Below are positions 14,623 to 64,000 of a stretch of 64,000 bases of DNA, one piece after another. The DNA lies in contig CAIWHP010000191.1 of NCBI GenBank assembly GCA_903912445.1, positions 262-64,261 of the forward strand, read 5' to 3'. The DNA comes from an uncultured Lentisphaerota bacterium (lineage in GTDB: Bacteria > Verrucomicrobiota > Kiritimatiellia > CAIQIC01). Position numbers and translations under genes: made by a program. The notes under the pieces were generated by a model. It did not search any database. It was not told where the DNA came from and saw only the letters and a program-made list of their open reading frames with translations. Numbering within the stretch: position 1 is the stretch's first letter; the number at the start of each line of letters is the position of its first letter.

Positions 14623-14632
14623 CGTGGCTAAA

Positions 14633-23462: not shown

Positions 23463-23553
23463 GCAACGGGTGCACAGCATAGCTCTTGACGGTGGCCGGG
23501 CAAGCCCATTTAATCGCGGGCGCGGAAGCTTTGCCACCCGCTGAAAGGACCAC

Positions 23554-44082: not shown

Positions 44083-44101
44083 ATAAGGGCGAAAACAGTT
44101 G

Positions 44102-44149: not shown

Positions 44150-44161
44150 GCAGGAGATAAC

Positions 44162-45625
44162 ATGAACATGAAGACGATGCTGGTGGCGGTGCTGGCGCTG
44201 GCGGGGCTGGCCGCGGCGCAGGTGATCGATACCTCGGAGACGCGGGTGCAGACGACGCTCGATCCGCAGCTGAAGCGGATCGGGACGATCACGCCGCGCA
44301 GCGTCGGCCAGATCGCGGGCCAGAACTGGTCCATCGGCTGCGAGACGCTCGACCGCGACTTCACGAAGTACGACTCCTACAAGGACTACCTCGTGCCGCT
44401 CGGCATCAAGCTCATCCGGCTGCAGGGTGGCTGGGCGACGACGGAGCGCGAGCCGGGCAAGTACGACTGGCGCTGGCTCGACCGCGTGATTGACGACGCG
44501 CGCAGCCGCGGGCTGGAAATATTTCTGCAAACCAATTACGGCAACCCGGTCTATCAGGGCGGCGGCAACCGCGGACTGGGCGGCGGCTTCCCGACTTCGC
44601 CGGAGGCGTGGGCTGCGTGGGACAAGTGGGTCGAGGCGATGGCCACGCGCTACAAGGACAAGGTGCGCGACTGGGAAATGTGGAACGAGCCGGACGGCAA
44701 CAAGAACCACACGCCGGAGATGGTCGCCGACCTCAACATCCGCACGGCGGAGATCATCAAGCGCGTGATCCCCAACGCGCGGATAGCCGGCGGTATTTTG
44801 AGCAGTGCCAAGGTGAAATTCGCCGAAGGCTGGCTCAAGCGCGTCACCGAGCAGAAGAAGGAAGGACTGTTCACGTGGTTCATCTACCACGGCTACACGC
44901 GCAATCCCGACGAGAAGCACTATGAGGAGGTCGCGAAGCTCAAGGCGCTGTTCAAGCAGTACGCGCCGGAGATCAAGCTGTGGCAGGGCGAGGCCGGCAC
45001 GCAGTCGGAATTCTGCCTCGGCGGCGCGCTGTGCAAATATCCGTGGACGGAACTGACGCAGGCCAAGTGGATGACGCGCCGCATGCTCGGCGATCTTGGC
45101 CACGATGTGCCGTCGCTCGTTTTCTCCATCGCCGATCTCGATTACAACCGCTGGGACGGCTACCAGCTCGGCGACATGGATCGCTACGGACTCGTGAAGA
45201 CCGACAAGCAGTATCGCCTGCTCAAGGTGAAGACGTCCTACTACGCCGTGCAGAACGTCGTCGCGGTGTTCGACAACACGCTCGAGCGGCTCGCGGATGA
45301 TGCGTGTGCCGTCGAGTGCGCCAAGGCGACGGCGTGCTACGCCTTCAAGCACACGCCCAGCGGCGGATCGCTGCTCGTGTTCTGGGACAAGAGCGCCGTG
45401 CCCTCGAACGGCAACGACACGGTGAGCGCGACGTTGACGCTGGCGAAGGGCAGCTTCAAGGAGCCGGTCTGGGTGGACACGATCACCGGCGGCATCTTCG
45501 AGCTGCCGAAAGAAAAGATGAGCTGCGAGGGCGAAAAGGTGACGTTCAAGGACATTCCCGTCTACGATGCACCGGCGTTCATTGCCGAGAAGAGCCTGGT
45601 ATTGCCGTCGAACAGCCCGCGCTAA
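44162..45625 (+). CDS. Secreted clan GH-A glycoside hydrolase (GH39/GH5-like; family not assigned)
   Basis: Signal MNMKTMLVAVLALAGLAAAQ. 'WEMWNEPD' is a clan GH-A acid/base NEP motif; 'LWQGEAG' is a candidate nucleophile region. A paralogous domain sits in the 55300 gene. Confidence 0.6.
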   Translation: MNMKTMLVAVLALAGLAAAQVIDTSETRVQTTLDPQLKRIGTITPRSVGQIAGQNWSIGCETLDRDFTKYDSYKDYLVPLGIKLIRLQGGWATTEREPGKYDWRWLDRVIDDARSRGLEIFLQTNYGNPVYQGGGNRGLGGGFPTSPEAWAAWDKWVEAMATRYKDKVRDWEMWNEPDGNKNHTPEMVADLNIRTAEIIKRVIPNARIAGGILSSAKVKFAEGWLKRVTEQKKEGLFTWFIYHGYTRNPDEKHYEEVAKLKALFKQYAPEIKLWQGEAGTQSEFCLGGALCKYPWTELTQAKWMTRRMLGDLGHDVPSLVFSIADLDYNRWDGYQLGDMDRYGLVKTDKQYRLLKVKTSYYAVQNVVAVFDNTLERLADDACAVECAKATACYAFKHTPSGGSLLVFWDKSAVPSNGNDTVSATLTLAKGSFKEPVWVDTITGGIFELPKEKMSCEGEKVTFKDIPVYDAPAFIAEKSLVLPSNSPR

Positions 45626-45637
45626 AGGATACGGAAG

Positions 45638-47560: not shown

Positions 47561-47684
47561 GGCTGGGCATGCGATGCCCGCGCACATGGGTTCGAACAGA
47601 AGGCGAAGGCCAAGGTTCTTCGATCGGCTCCCGCTGGCCGGGCGCTGGTTTCGGTTTGAATGCAGAAAAGCGAAAAGGGAAACC

Positions 47685-49550: not shown

Positions 49551-49557
49551 GGATGAG

Positions 49558-51360
49558 ATGAAATACACGCATCGCGTTTTTCCAATCATGGGAAGCCTGG
49601 GCCTGTTGTTTTTCCAAACATTGGAATCTGCAGCGCGGGCAGGCGCGGATGTGGAGGTGACCTGCATCTATACCAACGGGCGCGTCGAGAAGGCGCTGCT
49701 GCCGCTGGTGCAGGCCGGGACCGTGCAGCGGTTCCGCTGGGCGGCGGACAAGATCCCGGCCGGCGTCAGCCAAGTGGAAGTGCGGGCGGAGTTCGCGACC
49801 GCGAAAACCGGCGAAGACGGCTATTTCGTCATGCCGAACGGGTTCCTCGGCAGCTTCCGCGAGCGCGACGGCGAGCAGAAGCTGACGGCGAGTTATATGC
49901 CGATCTTCGGCATGAAGACGCCGCGGGCCGCCTTTGTCGCCATCGTCACCGGCCTGCCGCACGAATACACGCTGATCGCGCGCGCCAAGGCCGGCGCCTA
50001 CGCGTTCTATCCGCGTTTCGAACTGGGCGGGCGCAAGGCGAACGGCGACATTGCCATCGAGTATCATTTCCTGACGGGTGACGAGGCCGACTACTCGGGC
50101 ATGGCCAGGGCCTACCGCAAATTCCAGCTGGACCGCCAAGCCTGTGTACCCCTGAAGGAACGGATCAAGAGCCGTCCCGAGCTGGCCTATGCGCTGCAGT
50201 GCCCGGAGGTCCGCATCCGCATGGGCTGGAAGCCCGCGCCCAGCCCCGTGGAGGAGCAGACGCCCGCGACGGAGCCGCCAATGAAGGTGGCGGTCACGTT
50301 CGAGCGTGCCGGCGAGATTCTCGATGAGTGCAAGCGGCAGGGCATCGCGCGCGCGGAGTTCTGCCTCGTGGGCTGGAACCAGAAGGGACACGACGGCCGC
50401 TATCCACAACTGTTCCCGGTCGAGGAAGCGCTCGGCGGCGAAGCGCAGCTGCGCGCGTTGACTGCCAAGGCGCAGCAACTGGGCTACCAGCTCGTCTGCC
50501 ACAACAACCATTCCGACGCCTACCGTGTCGCCGACAGCTGGAACGAGGAGTTCGTCATCAAGAATCCGGCCGGCTCGCTCTCGACGAATGCGAGCTGGAG
50601 CGGCGGGCGGATGTATAACCTCTGTCCGCAGCGCGCCTACGAATGTTTCGCCCCGCAGGATCTGCGCGCCATCGCCGCGCTGGGCTTCCGCGGCGTGCAC
50701 TACATTGACGTGCTCTCCATCGTGCGGCCGCGCGCCTGCTACGATCCGCGCCATCCGCTTTCGCCCGACCAGTCGGCGGTGTGGATCAACAAAATCCTGC
50801 ACGAGGCCCGCGAGGTGTTCGGCGGCGTCTCCTCCGAGGGTGGGTTCGATTTCTGCTGCGGCAACCTGGACTACGCGCTCTACGTCTCCTTCGGGCACAT
50901 GACGAGCGTGCCCAAGCTGGTGGACCGCGTCGTGCCGCTCTGGCAGCTCGTCTATCACGGCATCATCATGAGCAACCCGTTCACCGACACGGCGAACTAC
51001 ACGCTCAAGGGCCCTGTCGCCCGGCTCAAGCTCGTCGAGTTCGGCGGCCGCCCGATGTTCTACTTCTATTCAAAATTCAAAGAGGACAACAAGCATTGGA
51101 TGGGCGCCGAGGACCTGACGTGCGCCGACCAGCCCGCGCTCGCCGCGAGCGTCGCGCAGATCAAGGCGGGTTACGACGAGTATGCCGCGCTGTGCCGCCT
51201 GCAGACCGAGTTCATGGACCGGCACGAGCTGCTCGCGCCCGAGGTCTCCCGCACCGCTTATTCCAGCGGGACGGCCATCATCTGCAACTACCGCGACAGC
51301 GACTTTGCTTATCGCGGCCAGCGGGTGCAGCCCCATGGGTACATCGTGGTGGAGCACTAG
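49558..51360 (+). CDS. Hypothetical secreted protein (600 aa) with the LFFQ-type leader. The palindrome pair (49579-49595, 49611-49627) lies inside codons 8-24.
   Basis: ATG with an upstream AAGGA. N-terminus MKYTHRVFPIMGSLGLLFFQTLESAARAGA. No recognisable catalytic motif. Confidence 0.5.
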   Translation: MKYTHRVFPIMGSLGLLFFQTLESAARAGADVEVTCIYTNGRVEKALLPLVQAGTVQRFRWAADKIPAGVSQVEVRAEFATAKTGEDGYFVMPNGFLGSFRERDGEQKLTASYMPIFGMKTPRAAFVAIVTGLPHEYTLIARAKAGAYAFYPRFELGGRKANGDIAIEYHFLTGDEADYSGMARAYRKFQLDRQACVPLKERIKSRPELAYALQCPEVRIRMGWKPAPSPVEEQTPATEPPMKVAVTFERAGEILDECKRQGIARAEFCLVGWNQKGHDGRYPQLFPVEEALGGEAQLRALTAKAQQLGYQLVCHNNHSDAYRVADSWNEEFVIKNPAGSLSTNASWSGGRMYNLCPQRAYECFAPQDLRAIAALGFRGVHYIDVLSIVRPRACYDPRHPLSPDQSAVWINKILHEAREVFGGVSSEGGFDFCCGNLDYALYVSFGHMTSVPKLVDRVVPLWQLVYHGIIMSNPFTDTANYTLKGPVARLKLVEFGGRPMFYFYSKFKEDNKHWMGAEDLTCADQPALAASVAQIKAGYDEYAALCRLQTEFMDRHELLAPEVSRTAYSSGTAIICNYRDSDFAYRGQRVQPHGYIVVEH

Positions 51361-51369
51361 GACCAGCTT

Positions 51370-53847
51370 GTGATGAAACGCAAACAGATGTTGAGCTGCC
51401 TCTGCGTGATGCTCGGAACGGGCCTGCTCGCGCTTTGTGCGGGAGAGAAACCCGGCCCGGGCTGCCCGCTGATCCCGATGGGGGCGATCACAGGGAAGCC
51501 GACTGAACAGACGGTGCAGGAAACGCTGGAGGCCTACAAGGCCGTCGGCATCGACCAGTATCTGATTTATGCGCGGAGCGGATTGGAGCTGGAGTACATG
51601 GGCGAAGCGTGGCTCCAGATGTGCGAGTGGTTCTGCAAACACGCCCAGCGGCTGGATATGAAGATCTGGTTGTACGACGAATACAACTGGCCGAGCGGCT
51701 CGTGCAAAGGCCGGGTGCCGGCGGAGAATCCGGATTTCGAGTCGCGCCAGTACGCGGTCTACAAGAAGGCCGACGGCACGTTCGACTGGAAAGTCTTGCA
51801 CTCGCCCGGCTGGGTGGACAACTACAGCTTCAAGGCCATGGAGCGCTTCATCGAACTGACCCACAAGCAATATGAGCAGCGGCTCGGCCCGTATTTGGGC
51901 ACGACCGTCCGGGGCATCTTCACGGACGAGCCGGCGCACCCCGTGCCGGTGCGGCCGGAGGGCAAGCCGGCGCTGCTCTTCCGCTATTTCGATGGCGCCG
52001 AAACGGAATACCTGGCCGCGACCGGACGGGAATTGCGCGCGGATGTGCAAGCGTACCTAGCCGACAAAAAGCAGGACGAGGTTTGGGCCGTCTATTACGG
52101 GTTGCTCGGCGAACGGTTTCGCAAAGCCTACTTCGATCCGCTCCGCGCCTGGTGCGACCGCGTGGGCGTGCTATCGGCCGGGCACCTGATCGCCGAGAAC
52201 AACACCTGCGATTCCGCGCTCTACAACGGCAGGCCGTTGCATGCCTTGAAAGGGCTGACGTTGCCGGGCATGGACGAGATCGGAACGCGCTGCGATCCCG
52301 GGAACATCGAATGGCTCACGCTGGCCGTGGCGCAGCACGCGATTGGCCGCCGGGGCAACGGCGGGCTGGTCGAGCTGTTCGCGCTTGGCCCCAGCGACAT
52401 GCTGCACGCGACGCAGCGCCAGATGCTCTGGCTTTGCGCCCTGCACAAGATGGATCGCTACGTGCTGGCGATTGCGCCGCTCGACGCGCGCGGGAATGTG
52501 GAGAAATCCGGCTATTTCAATCCCCTGACCCGCATGCAGCCGTGGTTCCCCGCCTTCCGTCTGCTGGGTGACGAAGCGCGCGTGGCTGCCCGCTATGCGG
52601 CCAAACCCGTGTGCTGCGACATCGCCATCCGCTATCCGCAGCGCGAGACCGCGCGGCTGGCGGCCCAGCGCAAGCAACATCCCGCCTTGCTTGCCACGCT
52701 GCGCCGCTTCGCTGCGCACCAACTCACCTACGACCTCTACGAAGAAGACGAGCCTTGCGACAAGCCGCTCGTGTTCGCCTGCGACGGCACGGCGCTGAAG
52801 GAGGAGCATTCGGGGCGCTCGTTTGCTTCGGCCGACGAGGCCGCCGCCTTTGCCAAGACGGTCTGTCCACCGCCGGTCTGGGTCGAGACGGCGGAAGGCC
52901 GGCCGGCCGAGAACCTGCTGCTGCGACACTATCAGGACGGCAGCGTCGTGGTACTGGGTCTCACGGCCAAAGAACACGGACTACTGCGGCTAATGCGTCG
53001 CGACCACCAACCGGTGCCGTTCGAGCTGCCGGCCCGCGGGGTGTATCGATTCGAAGGAAACGCTTCCCTGGCGCAGGCACCAGCCTCTGTACAAGGGCTT
53101 CCGATAGGGACTTCCTTTGGCTTGGCGCTCAGCACAGGCAACACGCTGCGCCTGGCCTTCGACGCAAACGGCAGGGCGCGCGTTCAGGTCAAGGATCCGG
53201 TTGCGGCTGCGCGCATGGTGCTGCGCCGGCACCCTGCGTCGAGCGCGGTGACCATGGATGGCAAGCCCGTGAACGCGGAGCAGCCTTGCCGCATCTTGCG
53301 GCCGGGACTCGACGAATTGTACCGGCAGACAGAGCCGTTTCGGTTGGAAGCAGGTGAACACGTCTTCGTCATCACGGCAGGCGGGAGTGACACGAATTAC
53401 TTCCTGCCGGTCGCGTGGGTGGCGGGCGACTTCACCGTTATGGACGGGGTCATCAAGGCCTTGCCGCAGACCGTTGGCGTGGGGGCGCTGTGGCAACAAG
53501 GCCTGGCCGGTTTTGCGGGCAGTATCACCTACACCGCGACGGTCGCGGTGCCGCAGCATGCCGGTCCGATGCGCCTGCGGCTCAACACGGGCGGGCTCTA
53601 CTCCGCGGCGTCGCTAAATGGACAGGCATTGGGCGAACGTGCGTGGGCACCCTTCGAGTGGGTCGTGCCCGCGGAGGCAAAAGGCAGGACGGCAGAGCTG
53701 AAGGTCACCGTTTGGACCTCGGTAGCTCCGCTGTTCGGTGATTGGAAGAATGGCGCGGGTGCTTGGAGCAAGCGGTTCTGGGTGCCGCCGCCGAATCCGC
53801 ATGCCGAGGTCGGTCTTCTTTCCAATCCAGAATGGATGCTGTTCTAA
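51370..53847 (+). CDS. Large secreted hypothetical protein (825 aa; possibly glycoside-hydrolase-like)
   Basis: Signal MMKRKQMLSCLCVMLGTGLLALCAG. Long ORF with coding-like composition. No firm family call. Confidence 0.5.
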   Translation: MMKRKQMLSCLCVMLGTGLLALCAGEKPGPGCPLIPMGAITGKPTEQTVQETLEAYKAVGIDQYLIYARSGLELEYMGEAWLQMCEWFCKHAQRLDMKIWLYDEYNWPSGSCKGRVPAENPDFESRQYAVYKKADGTFDWKVLHSPGWVDNYSFKAMERFIELTHKQYEQRLGPYLGTTVRGIFTDEPAHPVPVRPEGKPALLFRYFDGAETEYLAATGRELRADVQAYLADKKQDEVWAVYYGLLGERFRKAYFDPLRAWCDRVGVLSAGHLIAENNTCDSALYNGRPLHALKGLTLPGMDEIGTRCDPGNIEWLTLAVAQHAIGRRGNGGLVELFALGPSDMLHATQRQMLWLCALHKMDRYVLAIAPLDARGNVEKSGYFNPLTRMQPWFPAFRLLGDEARVAARYAAKPVCCDIAIRYPQRETARLAAQRKQHPALLATLRRFAAHQLTYDLYEEDEPCDKPLVFACDGTALKEEHSGRSFASADEAAAFAKTVCPPPVWVETAEGRPAENLLLRHYQDGSVVVLGLTAKEHGLLRLMRRDHQPVPFELPARGVYRFEGNASLAQAPASVQGLPIGTSFGLALSTGNTLRLAFDANGRARVQVKDPVAAARMVLRRHPASSAVTMDGKPVNAEQPCRILRPGLDELYRQTEPFRLEAGEHVFVITAGGSDTNYFLPVAWVAGDFTVMDGVIKALPQTVGVGALWQQGLAGFAGSITYTATVAVPQHAGPMRLRLNTGGLYSAASLNGQALGERAWAPFEWVVPAEAKGRTAELKVTVWTSVAPLFGDWKNGAGAWSKRFWVPPPNPHAEVGLLSNPEWMLF

Positions 53848-53944
53848 ACCCATGAACCCGATTGGAAATCGCCGTGCTCGCGTGCGCCATCCAGCAGAGG
53901 GTGGTCATGAAGACAGATGCTGGGAAAAGCGTGGGAGTGTAATA

Positions 53945-55288
53945 ATGAGAAATATCTGGTTGGTCGCCTGGTGTGTGGCCGCCGTGCAGCTGGCGGGTGC
54001 GGTTGTCGATGACGGTTTCCAAAGCACCGCGCGCAGTGACTCGGGGAAGCTGCCGCACGGATACGTGCCGCCGCTGGTCAGCGTTCCCGGCGAGCACCTC
54101 TTGCGCGCGAAGGCGGAGGACGCCTGGCGGGCCGCGTGGGAGCGTTTCTACGACGACCGCACGCATCTGTTCTACGACTATGTTTGCAGCTATGACCCGG
54201 CGAAGCGTCTGGCCAATCTGCCGACGCCGGCGGAGACCGCACAGCAGAAGCCCAATCCCAACGGGTGGGGGACCGGGATGGAAGATTGCGCGATCAGCGG
54301 CGGGCTGATGCTCGCGATGGTCTGCGACCGGTTCACCGCGACGGGCGATGCCGCGCTGCGTCCGTACGCGCAAAAAGTTTTTGCCGGGTTGAAGACGCTG
54401 GTCGAGAGCAGCGCGACAGAAGGTTTCGTCTGCCGCGGCCTCTGTCCCGCCGACGGGAAGGCGCACTACCCGGAAAGTTCCCGCGACCAATACACGTGGT
54501 ATGTCTACGGTCTCTGGCGTTACTACCATTCCCCGCTCGCGCAAGCGGAAGAGAAGGCCGCTGTTCGAAAACTCGTCACCGCCGTCTGTGCACGAATGGA
54601 GCGCAACATTATCCCTGAACGAAATTATTCCATCGGGAAGGACACCGGCGCCTTCGATGGCATCGTGGACAAGATGTGGGAGAACATGGCGCACGAGGTC
54701 GCGCGGTTGCCGATGATCTACGCCATCGGTGCGGATGTGACCGGCGACCAACATTGGAAAGAGCTCGCGCGTCGCTACAGCCCCGAGGCTGCGGCGAAAT
54801 CGAAAGAAGCGTCCACGAAGATTCCCTACGCGCTGCTGCAGCAGCAGACCTCCCTGGAAGTGCTCTATCAGCTGGAGGATGCTCCCGTCCTGAAAAAGCA
54901 GTGGCTGGAGGCGATGGTGCTGGTGGCCGACCGCGCCAAGGGGTTCTTCGGCAAATGCCTCAAATATCAGGCCCCGACCGCCGATCAGGTGCATTTCGAT
55001 TGGCGGGACTGGCCGCTGAAGAAATCGGGGCCCTACAGTGTGCCCACGCGGCCCGAGGCCTTCCTCTCCGAAGACCGCACGATCCGCGAGCCGGCCGAGG
55101 CTGCGCTGGTGCAGCTGCTGATGCCCCAGCCAACGCTGACCGCGGAACAACTCGCGTTGATGAAGCAGGCCATCGCGCAGGTGGATTACGCCAAGGTGGT
55201 TTACTACGGGCACTACTACACGCAGGCTGTTTATTGGCGGGCTGTGCGCTGCGGTCTGCTCAAGCTGCCGGCCGCACCACGAAACTGA
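53945..55288 (+). CDS. Secreted hypothetical protein, possibly an (alpha/alpha)6-toroid glycoside-hydrolase-like fold
   Basis: Signal MRNIWLVAWCVAAVQLAGA. A helix-rich body with 'GWGTGMEDCAISGG' is reminiscent of alpha-toroid hydrolases. The assignment is weak. Confidence 0.45.
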   Translation: MRNIWLVAWCVAAVQLAGAVVDDGFQSTARSDSGKLPHGYVPPLVSVPGEHLLRAKAEDAWRAAWERFYDDRTHLFYDYVCSYDPAKRLANLPTPAETAQQKPNPNGWGTGMEDCAISGGLMLAMVCDRFTATGDAALRPYAQKVFAGLKTLVESSATEGFVCRGLCPADGKAHYPESSRDQYTWYVYGLWRYYHSPLAQAEEKAAVRKLVTAVCARMERNIIPERNYSIGKDTGAFDGIVDKMWENMAHEVARLPMIYAIGADVTGDQHWKELARRYSPEAAAKSKEASTKIPYALLQQQTSLEVLYQLEDAPVLKKQWLEAMVLVADRAKGFFGKCLKYQAPTADQVHFDWRDWPLKKSGPYSVPTRPEAFLSEDRTIREPAEAALVQLLMPQPTLTAEQLALMKQAIAQVDYAKVVYYGHYYTQAVYWRAVRCGLLKLPAAPRN

Positions 55289-55299
55289 AGGAGAAACCT

Positions 55300-57975
55300 A
55301 TGAAGCAGAACATGATGATCCTGGCGGGGCTGACCCTGGCGGCAGGTCTGGCTCACGGCGCACCGATGGCCTGCTGGCATTTCGACGGCGACCTCTCCGG
55401 CGGTGCGGCTCCTGCACTCGCGGGCAAGGCCGGGGTGTTCGAAAAAGGCACGCCGCCGGTGTTCGCTGGGGATGTGCCGGCCACGAACATTTGGGATGGC
55501 GCGACGTTCTCATCGGCCAACCCGGCGAACAAGAGTGGGCTACGCTTTGCCAATGACGGCGTGACCGGGGTGGGCAGTCCCCTGGGTGGCGAGGTGGTGG
55601 TTTCCGGGGCGGAGGCACAGACGCAGCCGGCGGAGTTCACGGTCGAGGCGTTCGTCAAGATGGGCAAGCAGATGGCGCGGCACGCGCTGCTCGCGAGCAA
55701 GCGGCGCAACGGGCAGACGGGCGCGAGCTGGTCGCTCTCGATTGACCCGCAGGGCTGCATCCGCGCGCGGTTCGATACGCAGCCCGGCGCGGATTCGAAG
55801 AGCGGCGAGGGCTTCAATCAAACCATGGGCTCCAGCGGGAGTGTGACCGATGGCGCGTGGCACCATGTGGCGCTGACGTTCGACCGCGCGACGCTGGCAG
55901 CGGCCATCTATGTGGACCACGTCCGGTGTGGCGGCGGCACGACCAAGGGGCCGCTGGTCTATGACGGCGGCCCGCTGGTGCTCGGGCGCGGGCTGGATGG
56001 CTGGCTGGATGAGGTGCGCTTGACCGGCGCTGTCTTGCACCCGGAGCAATTCCTCCGCACCACCCGCTTCTTCTCCGAACTGAAGCCGCGCGCGCCGGTG
56101 GTGACGATGCTGGACCAAACGCCGACGCGTGTGCAGTCCGCGCTGAAACTCGACTGGAAAAAGCTGGGCACCTTGACGCCGAAGAGCGTGGAAGAAATCG
56201 GCACCTCGATGTGGTCGCTGGGCTGCGAGACGCTCGACCGCGACCTCGCGGATTGGGACGTCTACAAAACCTATCTCCAGCCGCTGGGCATCAAGCGGAT
56301 CCGCCTGCAGGGCGGCTGGAACCGGACCGAAAAGCAGAAGGGCGTCTATGACTTCGCCTGGCTGGACCACATCGTGGACGATGCGCACGCGCGCGGGCTG
56401 CAGGTCTGCCTGGAGACCTCCTACAACAACCACCTGTACGAGCCGAAGGGCGCGACGGGGCCGGGCGGGCAATTGCCGGCGGGCGAGGAGACGCTGGCGG
56501 CTTGGGACAAGTGGGTCGAGGCGATGGCGCGCCACTATGCACCCATGGGCGTGCAGGAATGGATGATGTATAACGAGCCCAACCTGAACAAGAGCAACAC
56601 GCTGGAGAAGATCGTCGCGAACAACATCCGCACGGCGGAGATCATCAAGCGCGTGGACCCGCAGGCGAAGATCGGCGCGTTCGTGCTGGCGGGCTTGTCT
56701 GTCGACAGGATCGAGAAGATGCTGGAAATGATCAAGGCGCAGGGCAAACTCGACCTTTTCCACTGGGCCATCTATCACGGCTACAGCGGCAATCCCGACC
56801 GGCTGAACGAGGCGATGAAGGAATTCACGGCGATGCTGGCGAAAGTCGCGCCGCAAATCAAACCGTGGCAGGGCGAGGCCGGCTGCGCCTCCGAGGAGGT
56901 GCAGTACGCGCTCTCCGGGATCGACTGGACCGAGTATTCCCACGCCAAGTGGAACGCGCGGCGGATGCTGTGCGACCTCGGCCACGGCATCGAGTCTTCC
57001 GTGTTCACCATCACGGATTTGAGCTATCACCGCGACTTCATCTCGCGGTACGGGCTGCTGAAGACCAGTCCGGACAATGCGATCATCAGGGTGAAGACCG
57101 CCTACTACGTCGTGCAAAATGTCGTGGCGGTGTTCAACGACGCGCTGGAACGCGTGCCGGACTATGCGCTGACGGTCACCGGGACGGAGAAGGCGCTGAC
57201 CTGGTTCGCGTTCCGCGACAAGAAGAGCAAGCTGGAGGTGGTGACGCTGTGGGACGGCACGGAGATTCCGTCCAACACGTCGGATGTCGAGACGGTGGAG
57301 GTCACGATCAAGCACGGGCAGTTCCGCCAGCCGGTGTGGGTGGACCTGGTCACCGGCAACGTGTACGAAATCCCGGCGGAGCAGGTGAAGATTGCCGGCG
57401 ACACGGTGACGTTCAAGGACCTGCCGGTCTACGACGGACCGGCGGCCATCACCGACCGGAGCCTGCTGTCGTTTGTGCCGGCGCGGGAGAGCAAGAAAGC
57501 GAAAGCGGCGTCGGCCGCCAAAACGAAGCGCACGGCCAAAGCCGACACGCTCCTGATGACCAAGCATCTGTTGCCCGGGACCCAGCAACCTGCGCCCGCC
57601 GTGGTGCTGTGCGCTGCCAAGGGCGAAGAGGTCGGCGGTCTCGTGAAATGGCTGAACGCGCAGGACGTCCATGTGTTCGTCGTGGAAAGCGCTGCCGTCA
57701 TGAAGCGCGCCTTGCAGACGATCCGCAGCCACGCCGCAGAGTGGCAGGTGAAACCGGGTTCCATCGGTGTGTTGGGCAGCGGCAAGCATGGCGTGGAAAG
57801 CGTGAAGGGCGTGATCGGTGATGCCGATTTCGCGGTTGTGCTGGACGCCGATGGCGCGGACATCGCCAAGGCTCTTCCTGAGGCGAAGCGCAAGGCTGTG
57901 TTCACCGGCAAGCAGGGCGAGTTTGAGAAGCCGCTCGCGACCTGGCTGGAGAAATACAAAGGAAAAGTGTTTTGA
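55300..57975 (+). CDS. Secreted multidomain protein: LamG/concanavalin-like domain, then clan GH-A glycoside hydrolase domain (paralog of the 44162 gene), then a C-terminal domain of unknown function
   Basis: Signal MKQNMMILAGLTLAAGLAHGA. LamG-like 'DGAWHHVALTFD...LDEVRL'. The GH domain 'MWSLGCETLDRDLADWDVYKTYLQPLGIKRIRLQGGW...WMMYNEPN...PWQGEAG' is collinear with the 44162 protein. Confidence 0.65.
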   Translation: MKQNMMILAGLTLAAGLAHGAPMACWHFDGDLSGGAAPALAGKAGVFEKGTPPVFAGDVPATNIWDGATFSSANPANKSGLRFANDGVTGVGSPLGGEVVVSGAEAQTQPAEFTVEAFVKMGKQMARHALLASKRRNGQTGASWSLSIDPQGCIRARFDTQPGADSKSGEGFNQTMGSSGSVTDGAWHHVALTFDRATLAAAIYVDHVRCGGGTTKGPLVYDGGPLVLGRGLDGWLDEVRLTGAVLHPEQFLRTTRFFSELKPRAPVVTMLDQTPTRVQSALKLDWKKLGTLTPKSVEEIGTSMWSLGCETLDRDLADWDVYKTYLQPLGIKRIRLQGGWNRTEKQKGVYDFAWLDHIVDDAHARGLQVCLETSYNNHLYEPKGATGPGGQLPAGEETLAAWDKWVEAMARHYAPMGVQEWMMYNEPNLNKSNTLEKIVANNIRTAEIIKRVDPQAKIGAFVLAGLSVDRIEKMLEMIKAQGKLDLFHWAIYHGYSGNPDRLNEAMKEFTAMLAKVAPQIKPWQGEAGCASEEVQYALSGIDWTEYSHAKWNARRMLCDLGHGIESSVFTITDLSYHRDFISRYGLLKTSPDNAIIRVKTAYYVVQNVVAVFNDALERVPDYALTVTGTEKALTWFAFRDKKSKLEVVTLWDGTEIPSNTSDVETVEVTIKHGQFRQPVWVDLVTGNVYEIPAEQVKIAGDTVTFKDLPVYDGPAAITDRSLLSFVPARESKKAKAASAAKTKRTAKADTLLMTKHLLPGTQQPAPAVVLCAAKGEEVGGLVKWLNAQDVHVFVVESAAVMKRALQTIRSHAAEWQVKPGSIGVLGSGKHGVESVKGVIGDADFAVVLDADGADIAKALPEAKRKAVFTGKQGEFEKPLATWLEKYKGKVF

Positions 57976-58032
57976 GTCTGCCGGTGGCCGCGCGAAGAAA
58001 TGAACCGAGCTAATGGAGCTGGAGAAGAAACT

Positions 58033-59313
58033 ATGAGACACATGATGCGTTGGAATTTTCCAGTGATGGGAACCTTGGCATTGCTGTTTTTCCAAGCATG
58101 GGGGATCAATGCTGCTGATGCCGTGCCGGCAAAAGCACCGATTCCGGTTTGGGATCTGGCGAAGGATGCCTTCGCCGCCACCACCGGGAAGATCGAGCGC
58201 GTGAACGGGCAGGTTCACATGGATGGCAGAAGCGCGTTCGCGATTCCCAACAGCGCGCTGCCCGATCCCAACTGTTTCACGATCACCATGGACATCCGCT
58301 TCCACAAGATCGAGCAGCGCGGCCATCTGCATCTGCTGGACCAGCGGGTGTCGGACACCGGCTTCAGCGTCGATGCGCTCAACCTTAGCGCGGTCGGCAG
58401 CCCGCTGACGACGACGATCAACGGCATCGCCTATGCCCGCAACAGCTTCCGGGCCACGACGAACCAGGTGTGGCAGTTCGTTTTCGCCGTGCGCGATGGC
58501 GCGGTTGCGGTCTATCAAAACAAGTCGGCCGGGCCGCAGTATCTGCTGCGCATCACGCCGAACCTCGCGCCGATCTGGGTCGGGCGCACGAAGAGCGAGC
58601 CGATCGCCGACTACGATATTCTTAGCCTGAAGGTGTTCGGACCGGACTACAAATATTACCTGCCGGGCGAGTCGGCGGACGCGATGAAGAACGGGTTCAC
58701 CGGCGGGCAGGGCTGGCTGGTCCGGCTGCCGGGCAAGATCGAAAAGCCGCTGCCGCGCATCCTCTATTACGGCGATTCCATTTCCGGGGGCTACGGCGAA
58801 CGCTTCACCGCGCTCATGAAGGACAAGGCCTATTGTTATCACTGGGTCCATTTCGTCGGCAGTGTCGGCGGGTTCCAGACCAATGCGTTTGTGGCGGCGG
58901 CGGGTGTCGCGCCATTCGACGTGATCATCTTCAACAACGGGCTGCACTCGTTGAGCTGGACGCCCGACAAGGCCACCGACGCGCAGATCGAAGCCGTGCT
59001 GCGCAACATGGTCCGCGCCTTCCGCCAGGGCGCGCCAAAGGCGAAACTGATCTGGGCCGCCACGACGCCGCACACCGCCAAGGGCAAACCCGTTACCGGC
59101 CTCGGCGAGAAGAATCCCGTCGTCATCCGGATCAACACCCTCGCGGAAAAAGTCATGAAGGAAGAGGGCGTGGACATGGTTGATCTCTACGCGCTGCTGA
59201 AAGATCATCTCAACCTCGCTGCCGGCGACCAGTATCATTGGTCGGGCGAGGCCTATCAACTGATCGCAGCCGCGCTGCAGAAAAAGTGTGACGCCATCTT
59301 GTCTCATCCTTAA
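58033..59313 (+). CDS. Secreted SGNH/GDSL hydrolase with an N-terminal beta-sandwich domain and the LFFQ-type leader. The palindrome pair (58057-58073, 58089-58105) lies inside codons 9-25.
   Basis: ATG at 58033 with an upstream GGAGAAG. N-terminus MRHMMRWNFPVMGTLALLFFQAWGINAADA. 'ILYYGDSISGGYG' (GDS block) and 'GDQYHWSGEAY' (DxxH block). Confidence 0.65.
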   Translation: MRHMMRWNFPVMGTLALLFFQAWGINAADAVPAKAPIPVWDLAKDAFAATTGKIERVNGQVHMDGRSAFAIPNSALPDPNCFTITMDIRFHKIEQRGHLHLLDQRVSDTGFSVDALNLSAVGSPLTTTINGIAYARNSFRATTNQVWQFVFAVRDGAVAVYQNKSAGPQYLLRITPNLAPIWVGRTKSEPIADYDILSLKVFGPDYKYYLPGESADAMKNGFTGGQGWLVRLPGKIEKPLPRILYYGDSISGGYGERFTALMKDKAYCYHWVHFVGSVGGFQTNAFVAAAGVAPFDVIIFNNGLHSLSWTPDKATDAQIEAVLRNMVRAFRQGAPKAKLIWAATTPHTAKGKPVTGLGEKNPVVIRINTLAEKVMKEEGVDMVDLYALLKDHLNLAAGDQYHWSGEAYQLIAAALQKKCDAILSHP

Positions 59314-59331
59314 AAGGAACAGGAGCTGCTC

Positions 59332-62300
59332 ATGAAAATGCGCGCAAGAAGTGGGATCGCTTTGCTGTTTCTCTGTAGCACAGCCTGGTGCTCGGCGGGC
59401 GTGAAGGTCGAGGAGACCAAGGTCACGGTGCCGACCTATCCGCCGGGGCCGTGCGACAAGACCCCCGTTTTCTATACGGGCCGCGTCTATCAGGGCGCGC
59501 AGGGCCGGGTGTATCCCTATCCGCTGCAGGATGTGCTGCACGACGAGAAGGTGGACAAGACTTACACCGCGCTCCGGCTGGAAAACGAGTACCTGGAGAT
59601 GTCGGTCCTGCCGGAAATCGGCGGCAGGCTATTCAGTTTCACCGACAAGGCTACCGGCTTTGATATCTTTTACCGGCAATCGGTGATCAAGCCGGCCCTG
59701 ATCGGGATGCTGGGCGCGTGGACCTCCGGCGGCGTGGAGTGGAACTTCCCGCATCACCATCGCGCGACGACGTTCATGCCGGTGAATTACACGACGACCG
59801 CCAACGCGGACGGCAGCAAGACGATCTGGGTTGGCGAGACGGAGTTGCGGCACCGGATGAAATGGTCCATTGGGCTGAGCATGAAGCCGGGCCGCTCCTA
59901 CCTGGAGGCCGACTGCCGCTTCATGAACCGGCAACCATATCTCGAATCCATGCTGTACTGGGCGAATGTGTCGGTGCATTGCGGGACGAACTATCAGGTG
60001 CTATTTCCGCCTGCCTGCCGGGTGGGGATGGACCATCACAAGAACTATTTCACGCACTTCCCCCTGGGGCGTCCGAATGTCGCGATCGACGAGCTGGCCG
60101 ACCTGAGCTGGTGGAAGAACTTCACCTCCGACCACCGCTCCATTTTCGCGGTCGACCCGGACAACGACTTTCTTGCGGGCTACGACCACGGGCGCGGGCT
60201 GGGCACGGCGCATGTGGCCAACCACCAGATTGTCTGCGGCAAGAAATTCTTCCTCTGGGGCAACAATCCCGGCGGCTTCGTCTGGGACAAGGTGCTCACC
60301 GATCACGACGGGCCGTATCTGGAGCTGATGGTCGGCGCTTATTCCGACAACCAGCCGGACTACAGCTGGCTTTCGCCGTACGAGACCCGCTCCTGCAAGC
60401 AATACTGGTATCCGATCAAGCAGATCGGCGGCGTGAAGTGCGCGACGCTCGACGCGGCCATCAATCTCGAACGGCGCGCGCCGGACAAGGTCTTCCTCGG
60501 CTTCAACGCGACCGCCAAGCTCAAGCACGCCAAGGTGGTGTTGCACCACGGCGCGGCGACGTTCTCCGAGGTCATCGATATCGATCCGAACACGCCTTAT
60601 GTGAAGGAGGTCCCCGTCGCGCCGGCCGTCAAGGATACCGAGCTCACCGGCATCCTGTTCGATCCCGACGGCCGCGAGCTGGTCCGCTATACGCCGGTGG
60701 TCGTCGAGGACAAGCCGCTGCCGGAGACCGTCGAGAATCCGCAGCCGCCCGCGACCTACAAAACGGTGGAGGAGCTCTATCTCGTCGGCCAGCGGCTGGA
60801 GCAGTTCCACAACGGCATCGTGGACCCCACGCCGTACTACGAGGAAGCCTTGCGGCGCGACCCGCTGGACCTGCGCGTGCATACCGTCGTCGGCATCCGG
60901 CTGGCCCGGCAGGCGAAATTCGCCGACGCCGAGACGCACCTGCGCCGCGCGGTGGAACGCACGACGCGCAACCACACCCGCGCCAAGGACGCCGAGCCGC
61001 ATTACTACCTCGGGATCGTGCTGAAGGAGCAGGGCCGGCTGAAGGAAGCCGAGGATCAATTGTGGAAGGCGGTCTGGCGCGACAGCTTCCAGCGCGCGGC
61101 TTATATCGAGCTGGCGAAGCTCGCCACGTTGAAGCACGACTACCCGCGCGCGCTGGAGCTGATCAACAGCGCCTTGGATGTGGCGGCGCGCTCCAGCAAG
61201 GCGCACACGGTGAAGGCCTATATTCTGCGCCAGCTGGGCCAGAAAAAAGAAGCGGATGCTGCGCTCAATAAAGCCGTCGAACTCGATCCGCTCGATGTCT
61301 GGTCGGTCGCGGAGCGCTGCTTTCTCAAGGGCAAGGGCCAGTCGGCGTTTGCGACAGCGGCGCGGCCGTGCGGCGACAAGTTGCAGGAACTGCTGGAGGT
61401 GGTCACCGACTACGGCAACATCGGCGCGCTGGACGAGGCGCTCGCGCTCCTGTCACAGGCCGAAGCGTTCACCAACCCGCTGGTGAAATATTATGCCGGC
61501 TACTACAACCTCCAGGCCGGCAGGACCAACGAGGCGCGTACGCTGTTCAGTGGGGCCGCGGCGCTGCCGACCGACTACTGTTTCCCGTTCCGGCATGAAG
61601 AGCTGAAGATGCTCGCGGCCGCGACGGAGCTGTGCCCGGCCGACGCCAACACGTGGTATTACCTCGGCAACCTCTGTTACTACCTGGAGCAGCGCGAGCG
61701 CGGCATCGCGGCGTGGGAGCAAGCCGTCGTGCTCAACCCGTCGCACGGCTTGGCCCTGCGCAACCTCGGGTTTGCCTACGGCCGGATGCCGGAGAAGCGC
61801 GCGACCGCCGTGGCCCGTTACAAGGCCGGGCTCAAGGCCGACCCGCAGAACGTCGCGTGCGTGCTGGAACTGGACAAGCTGTTCGAGAAGCTGAACCGCC
61901 CTGCTGCGGCGCGCCTCGCGTTTCTGGAGAGCCATATGGCGACAGCGCAGAAGAGCGACCCGACCATGTTGCGGCTGGCGTATCTGTATAACGAGACCGG
62001 CCAACATGACAAGGCGTTGGCCATTCTGGGCGCCCGTCGCTTCCATGTGTGGGAGGGTGCCGCGGCGTTGCACCAGCCGTTTGTGGATGCGTGCCTGCTG
62101 CGGGGGTTGGCCAAACTGGCTGCCGGAAAGAACCAGTCGGCGCTTCAGGATTTCCAACAGGCCGATACCTATCCCGAAAATCTTCAGGCGGGCCGCCCCG
62201 GCGATGCAGGGCAGGGTCCGAAGATTCATTACTACACGGCGCAGGCGCAACGCGCGCTCGGCGCTGCGGACAAGGCCCAGGCGGAGTTGCGCAAGGCAGT

Positions 62301-62631
62301 TGAAGGGCGTGTCGCCAACGGCGAGATGAACTACTATCGCCTGCTCGCCTGCCGGGAACTGGGCGCGGCCAAGGACGAAGCGGATCAGAAACAAAAGCTC
62401 CAGTCCGCGCTGGCCGCGCTGGAGCAGCCCGAGACCGTGGATGCCTATGCCAAGTTCGGCGGCGAAAACACGCCCAACGAACGGCTGGGTCACCGCTCGG
62501 CCGAGGCCGCCTATCTCAAGGGCTTGCTGGCGCTGGCGGAAAAGAATTCCGGTGAAGCCAAAAACTGTTTCGAGCGCGCGGTCAAAGAGCGTCCGGCCCT
62601 GATCTGGGCGCAGTTCTTTTTGCAAAGGTGA
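59332..62631 (+). CDS. Large secreted DUF5107-like domain protein with C-terminal TPR repeats
   Basis: Signal MKMRARSGIALLFLCSTAWCSA. The N-terminal ~450 aa resemble the DUF5107 family seen in polysaccharide-utilisation loci, as I recall it. The C-terminal half holds many TPR-like helical repeats (YYLGIVLKEQGRLKEAEDQLWKAV, AYILRQLGQKKEADAALNKAVELDP, and so on). Confidence 0.55.
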   Translation: MKMRARSGIALLFLCSTAWCSAGVKVEETKVTVPTYPPGPCDKTPVFYTGRVYQGAQGRVYPYPLQDVLHDEKVDKTYTALRLENEYLEMSVLPEIGGRLFSFTDKATGFDIFYRQSVIKPALIGMLGAWTSGGVEWNFPHHHRATTFMPVNYTTTANADGSKTIWVGETELRHRMKWSIGLSMKPGRSYLEADCRFMNRQPYLESMLYWANVSVHCGTNYQVLFPPACRVGMDHHKNYFTHFPLGRPNVAIDELADLSWWKNFTSDHRSIFAVDPDNDFLAGYDHGRGLGTAHVANHQIVCGKKFFLWGNNPGGFVWDKVLTDHDGPYLELMVGAYSDNQPDYSWLSPYETRSCKQYWYPIKQIGGVKCATLDAAINLERRAPDKVFLGFNATAKLKHAKVVLHHGAATFSEVIDIDPNTPYVKEVPVAPAVKDTELTGILFDPDGRELVRYTPVVVEDKPLPETVENPQPPATYKTVEELYLVGQRLEQFHNGIVDPTPYYEEALRRDPLDLRVHTVVGIRLARQAKFADAETHLRRAVERTTRNHTRAKDAEPHYYLGIVLKEQGRLKEAEDQLWKAVWRDSFQRAAYIELAKLATLKHDYPRALELINSALDVAARSSKAHTVKAYILRQLGQKKEADAALNKAVELDPLDVWSVAERCFLKGKGQSAFATAARPCGDKLQELLEVVTDYGNIGALDEALALLSQAEAFTNPLVKYYAGYYNLQAGRTNEARTLFSGAAALPTDYCFPFRHEELKMLAAATELCPADANTWYYLGNLCYYLEQRERGIAAWEQAVVLNPSHGLALRNLGFAYGRMPEKRATAVARYKAGLKADPQNVACVLELDKLFEKLNRPAAARLAFLESHMATAQKSDPTMLRLAYLYNETGQHDKALAILGARRFHVWEGAAALHQPFVDACLLRGLAKLAAGKNQSALQDFQQADTYPENLQAGRPGDAGQGPKIHYYTAQAQRALGAADKAQAELRKAVEGRVANGEMNYYRLLACRELGAAKDEADQKQKLQSALAALEQPETVDAYAKFGGENTPNERLGHRSAEAAYLKGLLALAEKNSGEAKNCFERAVKERPALIWAQFFLQR

Positions 62632-62634
62632 ACT

Positions 62635-64000
62635 ATGAAACACATTTCGCTTTGGAATATTCCAAGGCTTGGAACTCTCTGCCTGCTGTTTTTCCAAGGG
62701 TTGGAAACGCAGGCGGCAGGCGGGTTGCAAGGTGCACGCGGTGTGCTCACCGTGGACGCGCAGGGCATCAGCCTCGCACCGGCCTCCGCGACTTGCCCGA
62801 CGATCACGGCGCGGGGCGAGCCGATGTGGGCGGTGCTGATGCAGTCGGATACGCCGCCGCCGGTCGCCGGCGCGCCCGTCGTGCTCGGCGACAAGGGCCA
62901 GCAGCCCCAGCGCGAGGTCACCGCCGACGGCATCCGGCTGACCTACGCAAGTCTCACGGACGGCAAGCGCACGTGGCGTGTCGGGGTGACGCTCGATTTC
63001 CACCGCAAGGGCGACGCGTTCGAGGTGACCGGCGAGGTCCGCAACGACGAGCCGGGCTGGCTCATGTGCGGCTTCACCGGCCCGGTATTGCACGGCATCC
63101 GCGCCGATCTCGCGACGCATCCGGCGCTGTTGCCCGATGGTCTGGGCCGCATCATCCACCGGATGCCCGATGACAAGAAAGGCAGCAACGAGGTCGGCGT
63201 TGTATATCCGAGCCGCAAAGGGACGATGCAGTGGTGCACTCTTTCCGGCGCGCAGGGCGGGCTCTACTTCGGTTGCCACGACGCCACGCATGGCGCGAAA
63301 ACGATTTGCGTGCGGCGCGATGCCGCCAGCCAGACCTATGGACTCGCGGTGAAGCATCAGGCGTTTTGCGCGGTGGGTCAGCGCTGGGCGTTGCCGCCGA
63401 CGGTCATCATGCCCTACGCGGGCTCGTGGCACACCGCCGCCCGCTATTACCGGGCGTGGAGCGAAAGCATCGAGCCGCCGCTCGCCGTGCCGGAGTGGGC
63501 GCGCAACGCCTCCGGCTGGCTGCTCTGTATCCTGAAACAGCAGAATGGCGAGGTGCATTGGGATTATTCCTCGCTCGGCAAATTGTGCGACGTGGCCGAT
63601 GCGCGCGGGCTCGACATCCTCGGCCTGTTTGGCTGGGCGCACGGCGGGCACGATCATCTCTATCCTGAATATTTCTCCGACCCTAAGATGGGTGGCGAGG
63701 AGGCGCTGCGCAAGGCGCTGCGTGACATCCGGCAGCGCGGCAAACGCTCCATCCTCTATGCCAACGGCCAGCTCATCGAACAGGGCACGGAATTTTGGAG
63801 CAAGGAAGGCCAGGCGCTGGCGGTGCTGAAAAAGGACGGCACGCCCGTACAGCAGACCTATCACAAGTACCGCACGACCGCGCCGTTTCGCTTCGGCCTC
63901 GGCTGCCTGGTCGCGCCGGCGTGGTTCGACCGCATGCTCGCGCTCGCGGTGCAGGCCCACGCGCTCGGCGCGGACGGCATCCTCTATGACCAGCTTGGCG
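62635..64000 (+). CDS. Secreted hypothetical protein (partial; runs off the window end) with the LFFQ-type leader. The palindrome pair (62659-62675, 62691-62707) lies inside codons 9-25.
   Basis: ATG at 62635, preceded by AAAGG. Translating it by hand gives no stop up to position 64000. The ORF track omits it, presumably because no stop falls inside the window. N-terminus MKHISLWNIPRLGTLCLLFFQGLETQAAGG. The body is TIM-barrel-like (GWAHGGHDHLYPEYF). Confidence 0.55.
   Translation, partial: MKHISLWNIPRLGTLCLLFFQGLETQAAGGLQGARGVLTVDAQGISLAPASATCPTITARGEPMWAVLMQSDTPPPVAGAPVVLGDKGQQPQREVTADGIRLTYASLTDGKRTWRVGVTLDFHRKGDAFEVTGEVRNDEPGWLMCGFTGPVLHGIRADLATHPALLPDGLGRIIHRMPDDKKGSNEVGVVYPSRKGTMQWCTLSGAQGGLYFGCHDATHGAKTICVRRDAASQTYGLAVKHQAFCAVGQRWALPPTVIMPYAGSWHTAARYYRAWSESIEPPLAVPEWARNASGWLLCILKQQNGEVHWDYSSLGKLCDVADARGLDILGLFGWAHGGHDHLYPEYFSDPKMGGEEALRKALRDIRQRGKRSILYANGQLIEQGTEFWSKEGQALAVLKKDGTPVQQTYHKYRTTAPFRFGLGCLVAPAWFDRMLALAVQAHALGADGILYDQLG

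Follow-up and report, generated by a model that had tools for sequence, protein, structure and literature searches.

Three genes in a 64,000-nucleotide (64-kb) stretch of contig CAIWHP010000191.1 from an uncultured Lentisphaerota bacterium, hereafter the window, begin with a leader in which two copies of a short palindrome are embedded in frame. Comparative analysis of this sequence makes it probable that genes 1–3 start at their upstream ATG codons, that their first 27–28 codons are a predicted Sec-type signal peptide built from a two-unit palindrome array, and that the palindrome arms are still under nucleotide-level constraint.

Palindrome Units Embedded in Three Leaders

The palindrome unit was defined by the pattern TTCCAANNNTTGGAA (TTCCAA-N3-TTGGAA), with up to 2 mismatches allowed. 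In the window, which has a GC content of 64.6%, 16 matches were found against 0.98 expected, a number reached in 0 of 100 shuffles; a longer pattern, TTTTCCAANNNTKGRR, gave 8 matches against 0.01 expected. Nearly all units are paired or in triples 31–32 bp apart. Unit starts were located at 7229/7260, 16188/16219/16251, 44103/44134, 49580/49612, 58058/58090 and 62660/62692, with a lone unit at 25750.

The last three pairs lie within the leaders of genes 1–3, all on the plus strand. Gene calls in the window were crude and based on the GC content of third codon positions; domain assignments are from Pfam. Gene 1 (49558–51360) encodes a DUF5696/DUF6259-domain protein of 600 amino acids. Its leader, MKYTHRVFPIMGSLGLLFFQTLESAARA, spans codons 1–28 (49558–49641) and is followed by GADVEVTC. 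Unit 1, TTCCAATCATGGGAA (49580–49594), has 1 mismatch and is read (T)TT CCA ATC ATG GGA A (F-P-I-M-G); the same unit is perfect, TTCCAATCATTGGAA, in the ortholog carried by the comparative sequence L115. Unit 2, TTCCAAACATTGGAA (49612–49626), is perfect and is read TTC CAA ACA TTG GAA (F-Q-T-L-E).

Gene 2 (58033–59313) encodes a GDSL-like hydrolase of 426 amino acids with the leader MRHMMRWNFPVMGTLALLFFQAWGINA (58033–58113). Here, unit 1, TTCCAGTGATGGGAA (58058–58072), has 2 mismatches, and unit 2, TTCCAAGCATGGGGG (58090–58104), has an intact left arm and a decayed right arm, giving 3 mismatches. The leader is shared by the orthologs at L117:19629 and L121:8669, in which unit 2 is TTCCAAGCCCTGGAA and TTCCAAGCATTGGAA, respectively. 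Gene 3 (62635–64000, continuing beyond the window end) encodes a DUF6259 protein, 726 amino acids long in P0127, the public entry for this same protein, the start of which is identical to that of the upstream ATG model. Both units of its leader, MKHISLWNIPRLGTLCLLFFQGLETQA (62635–62715), are perfect: TTCCAAGGCTTGGAA (62660–62674), read I-P-R-L-G, and TTCCAAGGGTTGGAA (62692–62706), read F-Q-G-L-E.

Unit spacing is 32 bp and reading phase is identical in all three genes, with unit 1 read as xTT CCA...GGA (F/I-P-x-x-G) and unit 2 as TTC CAA...TTG GAA (F-Q-x-L-E). A Shine-Dalgarno (SD)-like AAGGA, GGAG or AAGGTG lies 4–8 nt before each ATG (AAGGA at 49549–49553 for gene 1), and the distance to the upstream stop codon is 7, 57 and 3 nt for genes 1, 2 and 3. 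The N-termini beginning at 49558, 58033 and 62635, with their in-frame palindromes, are exactly as quoted in the original prediction made from this DNA. Its description needs correction in that WN is present in only two of the three genes and that the units of gene 2 have already decayed.

The Leader as a Predicted Signal Peptide

The families of genes 1–3 carry an export signal at the N-terminus, which all three proteins would lose if their starts were placed beyond the palindromes. A hydrophobic N-terminal core was found in 106 of 120 homologs of gene 1, in 109 of 120 homologs of gene 3, and in 27 of 29 near-full-length relatives of gene 2, in which it ends right before PVWDLAKD. The signal peptides of gene 1 homologs are mostly ∼20–25 residues long and, in the N-termini listed, end right before (A)xVEVTC; the leader of gene 1, ...ESAARA|GADVEVTC, ends at the same point. 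The leader itself was observed in 1 of 120 homologs of gene 1 (P0001 only) and, intact or decayed, in ∼6 leader-like N-termini of the gene 3 family (P0127, P0128, P0129, P0130, P0139 and P0144). A profile search of a 5.8-billion-protein collection with the leader returned 6 short fragments and missed P0001, and is unusable for counting leaders.

The layout of the leader is also that of a signal peptide. Positively charged residues follow the start codon in genes 1–3 (MKYTHR, MRHMMR and MKH) and in other copies (MKIIRR, MKEMKR and MNTRR), and small residues occupy the c-region (ARA|G, INA|A and TQA|A in genes 1–3), which aligns with the motifs xAxA|xVEVTC and ...A|xPVWDL of the homologs. A twin-arginine translocation (Tat) reading, suggested by an RR pair before F-P in some copies, was rejected as a general interpretation, as the three leaders of the window and several others lack it.

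To compare codons, 14 copies of the leader were aligned from the window, L038, L058, L115, L117, L119, L120 and L121. The Leu in column 16 is invariant and is specified by 5 different codons, the Ala in column 28 is invariant and is specified by 4, and the third positions of the spacer Thr and Ala codons are freely variable. In the spacer and A-A region, purifying selection is acting on the translated peptide. The 11-residue Kyte-Doolittle maximum had a median of 2.06 in the 14 leaders, compared with 2.24 in 241 ordinary homolog signal peptides and 0.31 in 208 generic 32-bp unit pairs read in the same phase. Leader copies are without the A-run that follows generic units and would encode Lys.

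These data bear on the proposal that the leader is untranslated, with true starts beyond the palindromes and an open frame that extends by chance through a stop-free repeat. Units are indeed stop-free in every frame, long open frames through pairs show no overall frame bias, and long spurious open reading frames (ORFs) are usual in high-GC genomes. Nevertheless, ∼90% of homologs carry a signal peptide at the exact place of the leader, invariant amino acids are retained with synonymous variation in the spacer and A-A region, the core is far more hydrophobic than in generic pairs, and most of the ∼20 leader copies examined have an SD-like sequence and ATG at a fixed 21–27 nt before unit 1. An untranslated leader is therefore highly improbable. 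The lack of frame bias across long ORFs through pairs indicates instead that the in-frame reading is special to the leader cassette and not general to arrays.

Two features weigh against a translated signal peptide of the form proposed. First, an in-frame ATG lies within unit 1 (49588 in gene 1; 58066 in gene 2), making an alternative start possible; initiation there would shorten the signal and remove its charged n-region. Second, the ATG of some relatives is 66–147 nt from the leader (L117, L038 and L130), the interval containing GC-rich hairpin insertions that would result in unusually long n-regions. Because at least four of the insertions (L117, L038 and L130) preserve the frame without a stop codon, they argue at the same time that the upstream ATG is in use. 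The upstream ATG models of the original prediction thus agree with the position of the signal peptide in homologs, with the codon pattern and with the SD-like sequences.

In L038 (reverse strand, ∼1868–2015) and L130, an in-frame, stop-free insertion of ∼125 nt (...TSAPAGQxRRGR...) separates the ATG of the gene 1 ortholog from its leader. A second repeat of GC-rich hairpins, GCCGGGTCGGWGACCCGGCCTAC...GTAGGCCGCGTGACCTCACGCGGCGG, occurs six times in 21.8 kb of L117 (3705, 9849, 11876, 15596, 19651 and 21011), in each case on the gene strand and at a gene 5′ end beside palindrome arrays. Nearly every copy is open as RRVGDPAY..CRPRDLTRR into a hydrophobic core, copy 3705 being frameshifted. The repeat was also seen in L118, with its 3′ half near positions 150 and 16900 of L121, and is absent from the window.

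The commonest variant of the palindrome unit, TTCCAATGATTGGAA, has a central ATG at which gene callers and ORF lists start proteins (MIGK...; P0128, MLGILCLLFFQ...). It occurs at many loci, for example L004, L009, L020, L024 and L121:42. Because this internal ATG is used by gene callers, annotated N-termini in these genomes are unreliable.

Synonymous Sites in the Palindrome Arms

The codons required by the palindrome arms are disfavored in the genes of the window: the share among the codons of each amino acid is 4% for CCA (Pro), 5% for GGA (Gly), 16% for TTT (Phe), 17% for CAA (Gln), 11% for TTG (Leu) and 32% for GAA (Glu). In the 14 aligned leaders, arm positions were occupied by CCA in 12 of 14 cases, GGA in 14 of 14, TTT in 11 of 11, CAA in 12 of 14, TTG in 11 of 13, GAA in 12 of 12 and CTT in 8 of 8.

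The retention of these codons was assessed in three independent ortholog pairs only, with crude gene calls in the comparative set: gene 1 with L115, and genes 2 and 3 with L117, at 79–90% amino acid identity. Where the amino acid was conserved, 20 of 22 arm codons were identical between orthologs. By contrast, the same rare codons were kept in 42 of 153 cases (27%) in gene bodies (binomial P of about 7e-10 against the arms), and adjacent non-arm leader codons in 18 of 34 cases (53%; Fisher P = 0.003 against the arms). Synonymous sites in the arms are held while the adjacent spacer drifts, which excludes both a purely protein-level constraint and a merely young leader. The original prediction had proposed a double constraint on a single sequence, at once signal peptide and nucleotide palindrome, and had pointed to synonymous sites in orthologs as the means to tell the two apart; the comparison bears this out, the arms being locked and the spacer protein-like.

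The arms being constrained as nucleotides within an ORF, whatever recognizes the units elsewhere probably still acts on them inside the leaders. It has to be set against this that units decay while the signal persists, as in unit 2 of gene 2, in P0129 (LLSFPALAA), in L119 and in L120, and that orthologous BNR genes keep different units, L117:15796 only unit 2 (AGTLALLFFQALETQAA) and L121:4759 only unit 1 (MIVPRIGMLGLLLSLPAIGAA). Such decay implies that the nucleotide-level role is not essential everywhere. It would also be expected if the palindrome were vestigial in leaders, its arms conserved only by recent origin or gene conversion and having no nucleotide-level role in ORFs; a synonymous change of TTG to CTG, toward the preferred codon, in two L117 leaders is in keeping with this. 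However, in the same ortholog pairs the spacer and c-region codons have diverged normally and the arms have not. Conversion of the whole module would homogenize spacers too, and conversion tracts confined to 6-bp arms are implausible. A vestigial palindrome is thus considered unlikely.

Proposed Origin and Spread of the Leader Cassette

A two-unit array of the repeated palindrome would have been turned into a Sec-type signal peptide at the upstream ATG codons. In the proposed arrangement, the n-region is M-K/R-x4-6; the h-region, F-P-x-x-G-[TS]-L-x-L-L-F-F, would derive from the right half of unit 1, the 17-nt spacer and the left half of unit 2; and the c-region, Q-x-L-E-x-x-A-A, from the rest of unit 2 plus x-x-A-A, with cleavage expected after small-x-Ala. 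Only a 32-bp pair with unit 1 in codon phase 1 gives F-P-x-x-G...F-Q-x-L-E in one frame. In leader copies, the Lys-encoding A-run appears to have been replaced and the spacer turned hydrophobic. Within a narrow clade, the finished cassette then probably spread onto many genes for secreted glycan-degrading enzymes of unrelated families, displacing ordinary signal peptides.

Orthologs of gene 1 are found in three states. An ortholog with 87% identity (P0002, on L116) lacks units altogether and carries an ordinary signal peptide. In a second (P0004, on L117; 80%), a 3-unit array lies right before the ATG and is followed by an ordinary signal peptide. The third state, a two-unit leader and no ordinary signal peptide, is that of gene 1 in the window, P0001 on L115 (85%) and L038 (93% nucleotide identity). 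The last unit of the L117 array is in frame with the gene, ...FQGLES-MQALVWAGWLWCAAVQAP-AANVEVSC (FQGLES-MQALVW...AVQAP-AANVEVSC), and the window reads ...FQTLES-AARAGADVEVTC at the same point. The junction looks like an in-frame deletion, and replacement in gene 1 would apparently have proceeded by loss of the start and core of the ancestral signal peptide, initiation moving upstream.

The leaders of genes 2 and 3 are also present in L117 and L121. Further copies were found in L121 (on a paralog of the DUF6259 gene and on another GDSL gene), in L117 (on a BNR gene) and in L058 (on a GH67N-like protein). A metagenome scan with a leader-specific DNA pattern gave six further copies only, all from lake metagenomes and each on a different protein (two GDSL types, an NPCBM/metallopeptidase, a DUF3472 protein and two unknowns). 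This amounts to at least 20 copies on at least nine unrelated protein families: the cargo comprises DUF5696, DUF6259, two kinds of GDSL, BNR, NPCBM/metallopeptidase, DUF3472, GH67N-like and unknown proteins.

The cassette is thus narrow in taxa and broad in cargo, a pattern better explained by recombination than by repeated convergence; common descent is supported by the spacer sequence that the copies share, G-T-L-A-L-L-F-F-Q-A-L-E. The original prediction had offered a duplicated 5′ cassette spread among paralogs as one possibility. A cassette that spreads and replaces ordinary signal peptides is what was found, but its bearers are not paralogs, since genes 1–3 belong to the unrelated families DUF5696, GDSL-like and DUF6259. 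Nor does the cassette appear to be a promoter plus leader, given the upstream gaps of only 7 and 3 nt for two of the genes and a promoter scan without a site. We infer export, cleavage, the route of deletion and recombination, and the identity and mode of action of the recognizing factor from these comparisons.

Generic Arrays across the Lineage

The exact paired pattern was sought in one genome per species and matched at least 114 stretches; counted over 80 of these, exact pairs occur in at least 36 assemblies. Among the matches listed, nearly all carriers are metagenome-assembled genomes (MAGs) of the Planctomycetes-Verrucomicrobia-Chlamydiae (PVC) superphylum labeled Kiritimatiellia or Kiritimatiellae, including Pontiella; some carrier MAGs bear older labels, such as Lentisphaerae and Verrucomicrobia. 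The GC content of carriers is 49–73%. Seven viral contigs from IMG/VR (L122–L128) also contain exact pairs at the same spacing and may be prophages or host fragments.

The unit consensus is tttTTCCAA-NSN-TTGGAAaaa followed by ∼10 variable nucleotides, and 2–6 units form an array, with a local density of about one site per 8–9 kb. Unit spacing is 31 bp (136 cases), 32 bp (110) or 21/22 bp (12), other values being isolated only; at loci outside the selection made by the pattern scan, spacings were 31 bp (14 cases) and 32 bp (14 cases), plus 65 bp only. These values correspond to two or three turns of B-DNA, and the linker sequences are variable. The unit centers are mostly TGA/TCA or GCC/GGC, and 259 of 263 adjacent pairs had G or C as the middle base. 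The two-fold symmetry therefore extends through positions that are unable to pair in a hairpin.

At 87 high-GC loci, for which gene calls were crude, arrays occupied 55 tandem, 21 divergent and 17 convergent gaps, compared with a baseline of 315, 60 and 65. Arrays often fill convergent gaps exactly and often lie within a few nucleotides of a start codon. Large arrays adjoin genes that we take, from their N-terminal sequences, to be purM, cysS, alaS, nadD, yggS, degT and kpsF-like.

The units are generic intergenic elements and not an operator private to secreted enzymes, as follows from the sites in convergent gaps, the housekeeping neighbors, the density and the occurrence in at least 36 assemblies. 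The operator pair of the original prediction, around which signal peptides would have evolved, does not withstand these observations. Such an operator, bound by a regulator specific to the glycan-utilization cluster of the window, would account for four window-cluster sites lying at the 5′ ends of secreted-enzyme genes on one strand, for the similar location of most arrays of the syntenic cluster L117, and for a phasing of three helical turns, which is typical of cooperative operators. It is, however, very improbable, because units also occupy convergent 3′-3′ gaps (amidohydrolase/CreD in the window), adjoin housekeeping-type genes elsewhere at the density given above, and are missing from most orthologs within each enzyme family.

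Other Features of the Window

Two generic two-unit arrays of the window have a spacing of 31 bp. That at 7229–7274 lies 10 nt upstream of the ATG at 7285, and that at 44103–44148 lies 13 nt upstream of the ATG at 44162. Neither has an upstream ATG, so that the original prediction that they are the same cassette with translation starting downstream fails. The gene at 44162 encodes a GH42-like protein (Pfam) with its own signal peptide besides the upstream array, which has 2 units in the window and 5 at the orthologous L117 site. The protein encoded from 7285 (7285–7360) begins MNTHLNRRQFLSTAAGALGAAGC, a twin-arginine-type signal (RRQFL), possibly with a lipobox. As one array precedes a protein of this type, arrays are found before genes with several kinds of export signal.

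A three-unit array (16188–16265) fills an 87-nt convergent gap between an Amidohydro_3 gene (14603–16186, plus strand) and a CreD gene (16274–17809, minus strand); its neighboring units are predicted to pair into a single long hairpin (−38.8 kcal/mol, z = −3.15). The lone unit GTCCAAGCCTTGGAA (25750–25764) lies between a stop codon at 25748 and an ATG at 25780. A degenerate lone unit, TTCCAGGCATTGAAA, with an A-run (22385–22399), was noted in the convergent gap adjoining a LacI-family regulator gene (22434–23561, minus strand).

Genes 1–3 belong to a long plus-strand gene cluster that extends from 44162 to the window end. Its Pfam content (GH42-like, FAD_oxidored, GDSL, DUF5696, DUF6259, DUF5107-TPR and Laminin_G_3/GH39-like) is that of a glycan-utilization cluster. 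Scans of 44000–63999 for sigma-70 promoters and for terminators gave matches at chance level, none of them at a unit. A terminator-like GC-rich hairpin with a T-run is present at 62589–62621, within the last codons of the gene at 59332–62631 and ∼14 nt before the ATG of gene 3; such matches occur regionally at chance level.

Recognition of the Units

The units may be recognized either as duplex DNA or as hairpins. Phased binding of the duplex by a two-fold-symmetric, oligomerizing protein is tentatively preferred here to hairpins of the kind formed by repetitive extragenic palindromic (REP) sequences. Under the alternative, the palindromes would form hairpins in RNA or in transiently single-stranded DNA, as REP sequences and bacterial interspersed mosaic elements (BIMEs) do, and would be elements for stabilization or processing of polycistronic mRNA or substrates of a hairpin-binding transposase; in leaders they would form mRNA structure just after the start codon, the leader still being a translated signal peptide.

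Several observations favor hairpins and count against duplex binding. The units are extragenic, high in copy number and clustered in all gene orientations, including exactly filled 3′-3′ gaps. Related genomes differ in whether an array is present and in how many units it has (2 in the window and 5 in L117 at one site), a pattern suggestive of an unstable repeat more than of a conserved operator. Folding predicts long, stable hairpins between paired units, more stable than those of shuffled sequences at 3 of 6 folded sites (z = −3.4, −3.2 and −3.6). Compensatory double changes to G-C at positions 6 and 10 (A6>G with T10>C) were seen 5 times against about 1 expected from single changes, and perfect self-complementarity is retained in 4 of 10 units with two mismatches.

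On the other hand, spacing is quantized at 21/22 and 31/32 bp despite variable linkers, a helical phasing that is needless for RNA hairpins, and the palindromic preference (TSA or GSC) continues into the center, where a 3-nt loop could not pair. On the sense strand, changes compatible with G·U pairing showed no excess over C·A changes (6 against 8, a small sample). Adjacent centers are near-random in orientation (90 same and 61 inverted), so that inverted pairs are not enriched as in the doublets of REP sequences forming hairpins (REPINs). The unit sequence is conserved over very different genomes (49–73% GC), unlike species-specific REP sequences, and no Rfam match at the gathering score was obtained in the window, L117, L038 or L121. 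The flanking runs, of T on the 5′ side and of A on the 3′ side, are reversed relative to an intrinsic terminator. On balance, the hairpin alternative is possible but doubtful. Intrinsic terminators were considered as a separate candidate and rejected: the units are AU-rich, with the T-run before and the A-run after, and the terminator scan was empty at units.

A more specific form of the duplex reading is that the units are phased sites of a lineage-wide nucleoid- or Lrp-like DNA-binding protein and have been kept functional inside leader ORFs. This is a speculative proposal, which we would not regard as likely. If true, the export-signal DNA of many glycan-degrading enzymes would simultaneously be a bound regulatory or architectural array, with a dual code under selection, and the arrays would constitute a new, undescribed class of bacterial genome-wide element.

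Significance and Comparison with Known Systems

The leader suggests a concrete route from a genome-wide repeat to a functional protein module, in which an intergenic array beside start codons becomes a signal peptide and then a mobile cassette. Within 30 codons, overlapping constraints stand side by side: the spacer behaves as protein, and the arms behave as a nucleic acid site with rare codons frozen. The arrays are abundant, helically phased and conserved over many assemblies of a poorly studied PVC group specialized in polysaccharide degradation. N-terminus and secretome predictions in these genomes need care, as callers start ORFs inside or far upstream of the repeats. In the literature, no description was found of such palindromes or of such a leader.

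The leader resembles other Sec (signal peptidase I) peptides in its n/h/c layout, its length of 27–28 residues, the small residues before the predicted cut and its position, which is that of the signals of homologs. It differs from them in that its sequence is unusually conserved across unrelated proteins and its rare codons are fixed by palindromes. As a working likeness, the arrays can be compared with those of Lrp/AsnC-family operators, in which ∼15-bp two-fold sites (5–6-bp arms and a 3-bp center) lie ∼31 bp apart with variable linkers. The copy number and the 3′-3′ sites observed here are nevertheless beyond what is usual for a regulon, and related genomes show a high turnover of units.

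The REP sequences and BIMEs of enterobacteria and pseudomonads are alike in being short extragenic palindromes, found in all orientations including 3′-3′ and clustered in regular arrays whose unit number varies between relatives; the local density suggests hundreds of copies here, as in those systems. The present units, however, are shorter (15–21 bp) and AT-rich in a GC-rich genome, have no GTAG-type head that could be seen, and are conserved over at least 36 assemblies of a whole lineage, rather than being confined to one species. Their spacing is quantized at two or three helical turns, and adjacent units are not obligately inverted. REP sequences are, to our knowledge, not known to serve as signal peptide coding sequence.

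Rickettsia palindromic elements (RPEs) are reportedly inserted in frame in protein-coding genes. They are ∼100–150 bp long and sit at surface loops as passengers. The likeness lies in a repeated palindrome that is both intergenic and, in unrelated ORFs, in frame and translated. By contrast, the two-unit derivative described here is a predicted functional signal peptide module that would have replaced the ancestral one, with separate constraints at the protein and nucleotide levels. In the 5′ cassettes of surface proteins and lipoproteins, such as those of Borrelia, the promoter is part of the cassette and the families served are paralogous. The Borrelia upstream homology box and leader are similar in that the same 5′ segment, spread by recombination, stands before different mature proteins; the cassette of the present study differs in its unrelated cargo, in the upstream gaps of 3–7 nt for two genes and in its origin from a genome-wide repeat. 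In summary, each of these systems (REP/BIME, RPE, Borrelia-type cassettes and Lrp-type arrays) shares some part of the present one, and none of them appears to combine a genome-wide repeat, synonymous sites held fixed and a functional signal peptide module passed between enzymes of unrelated families.

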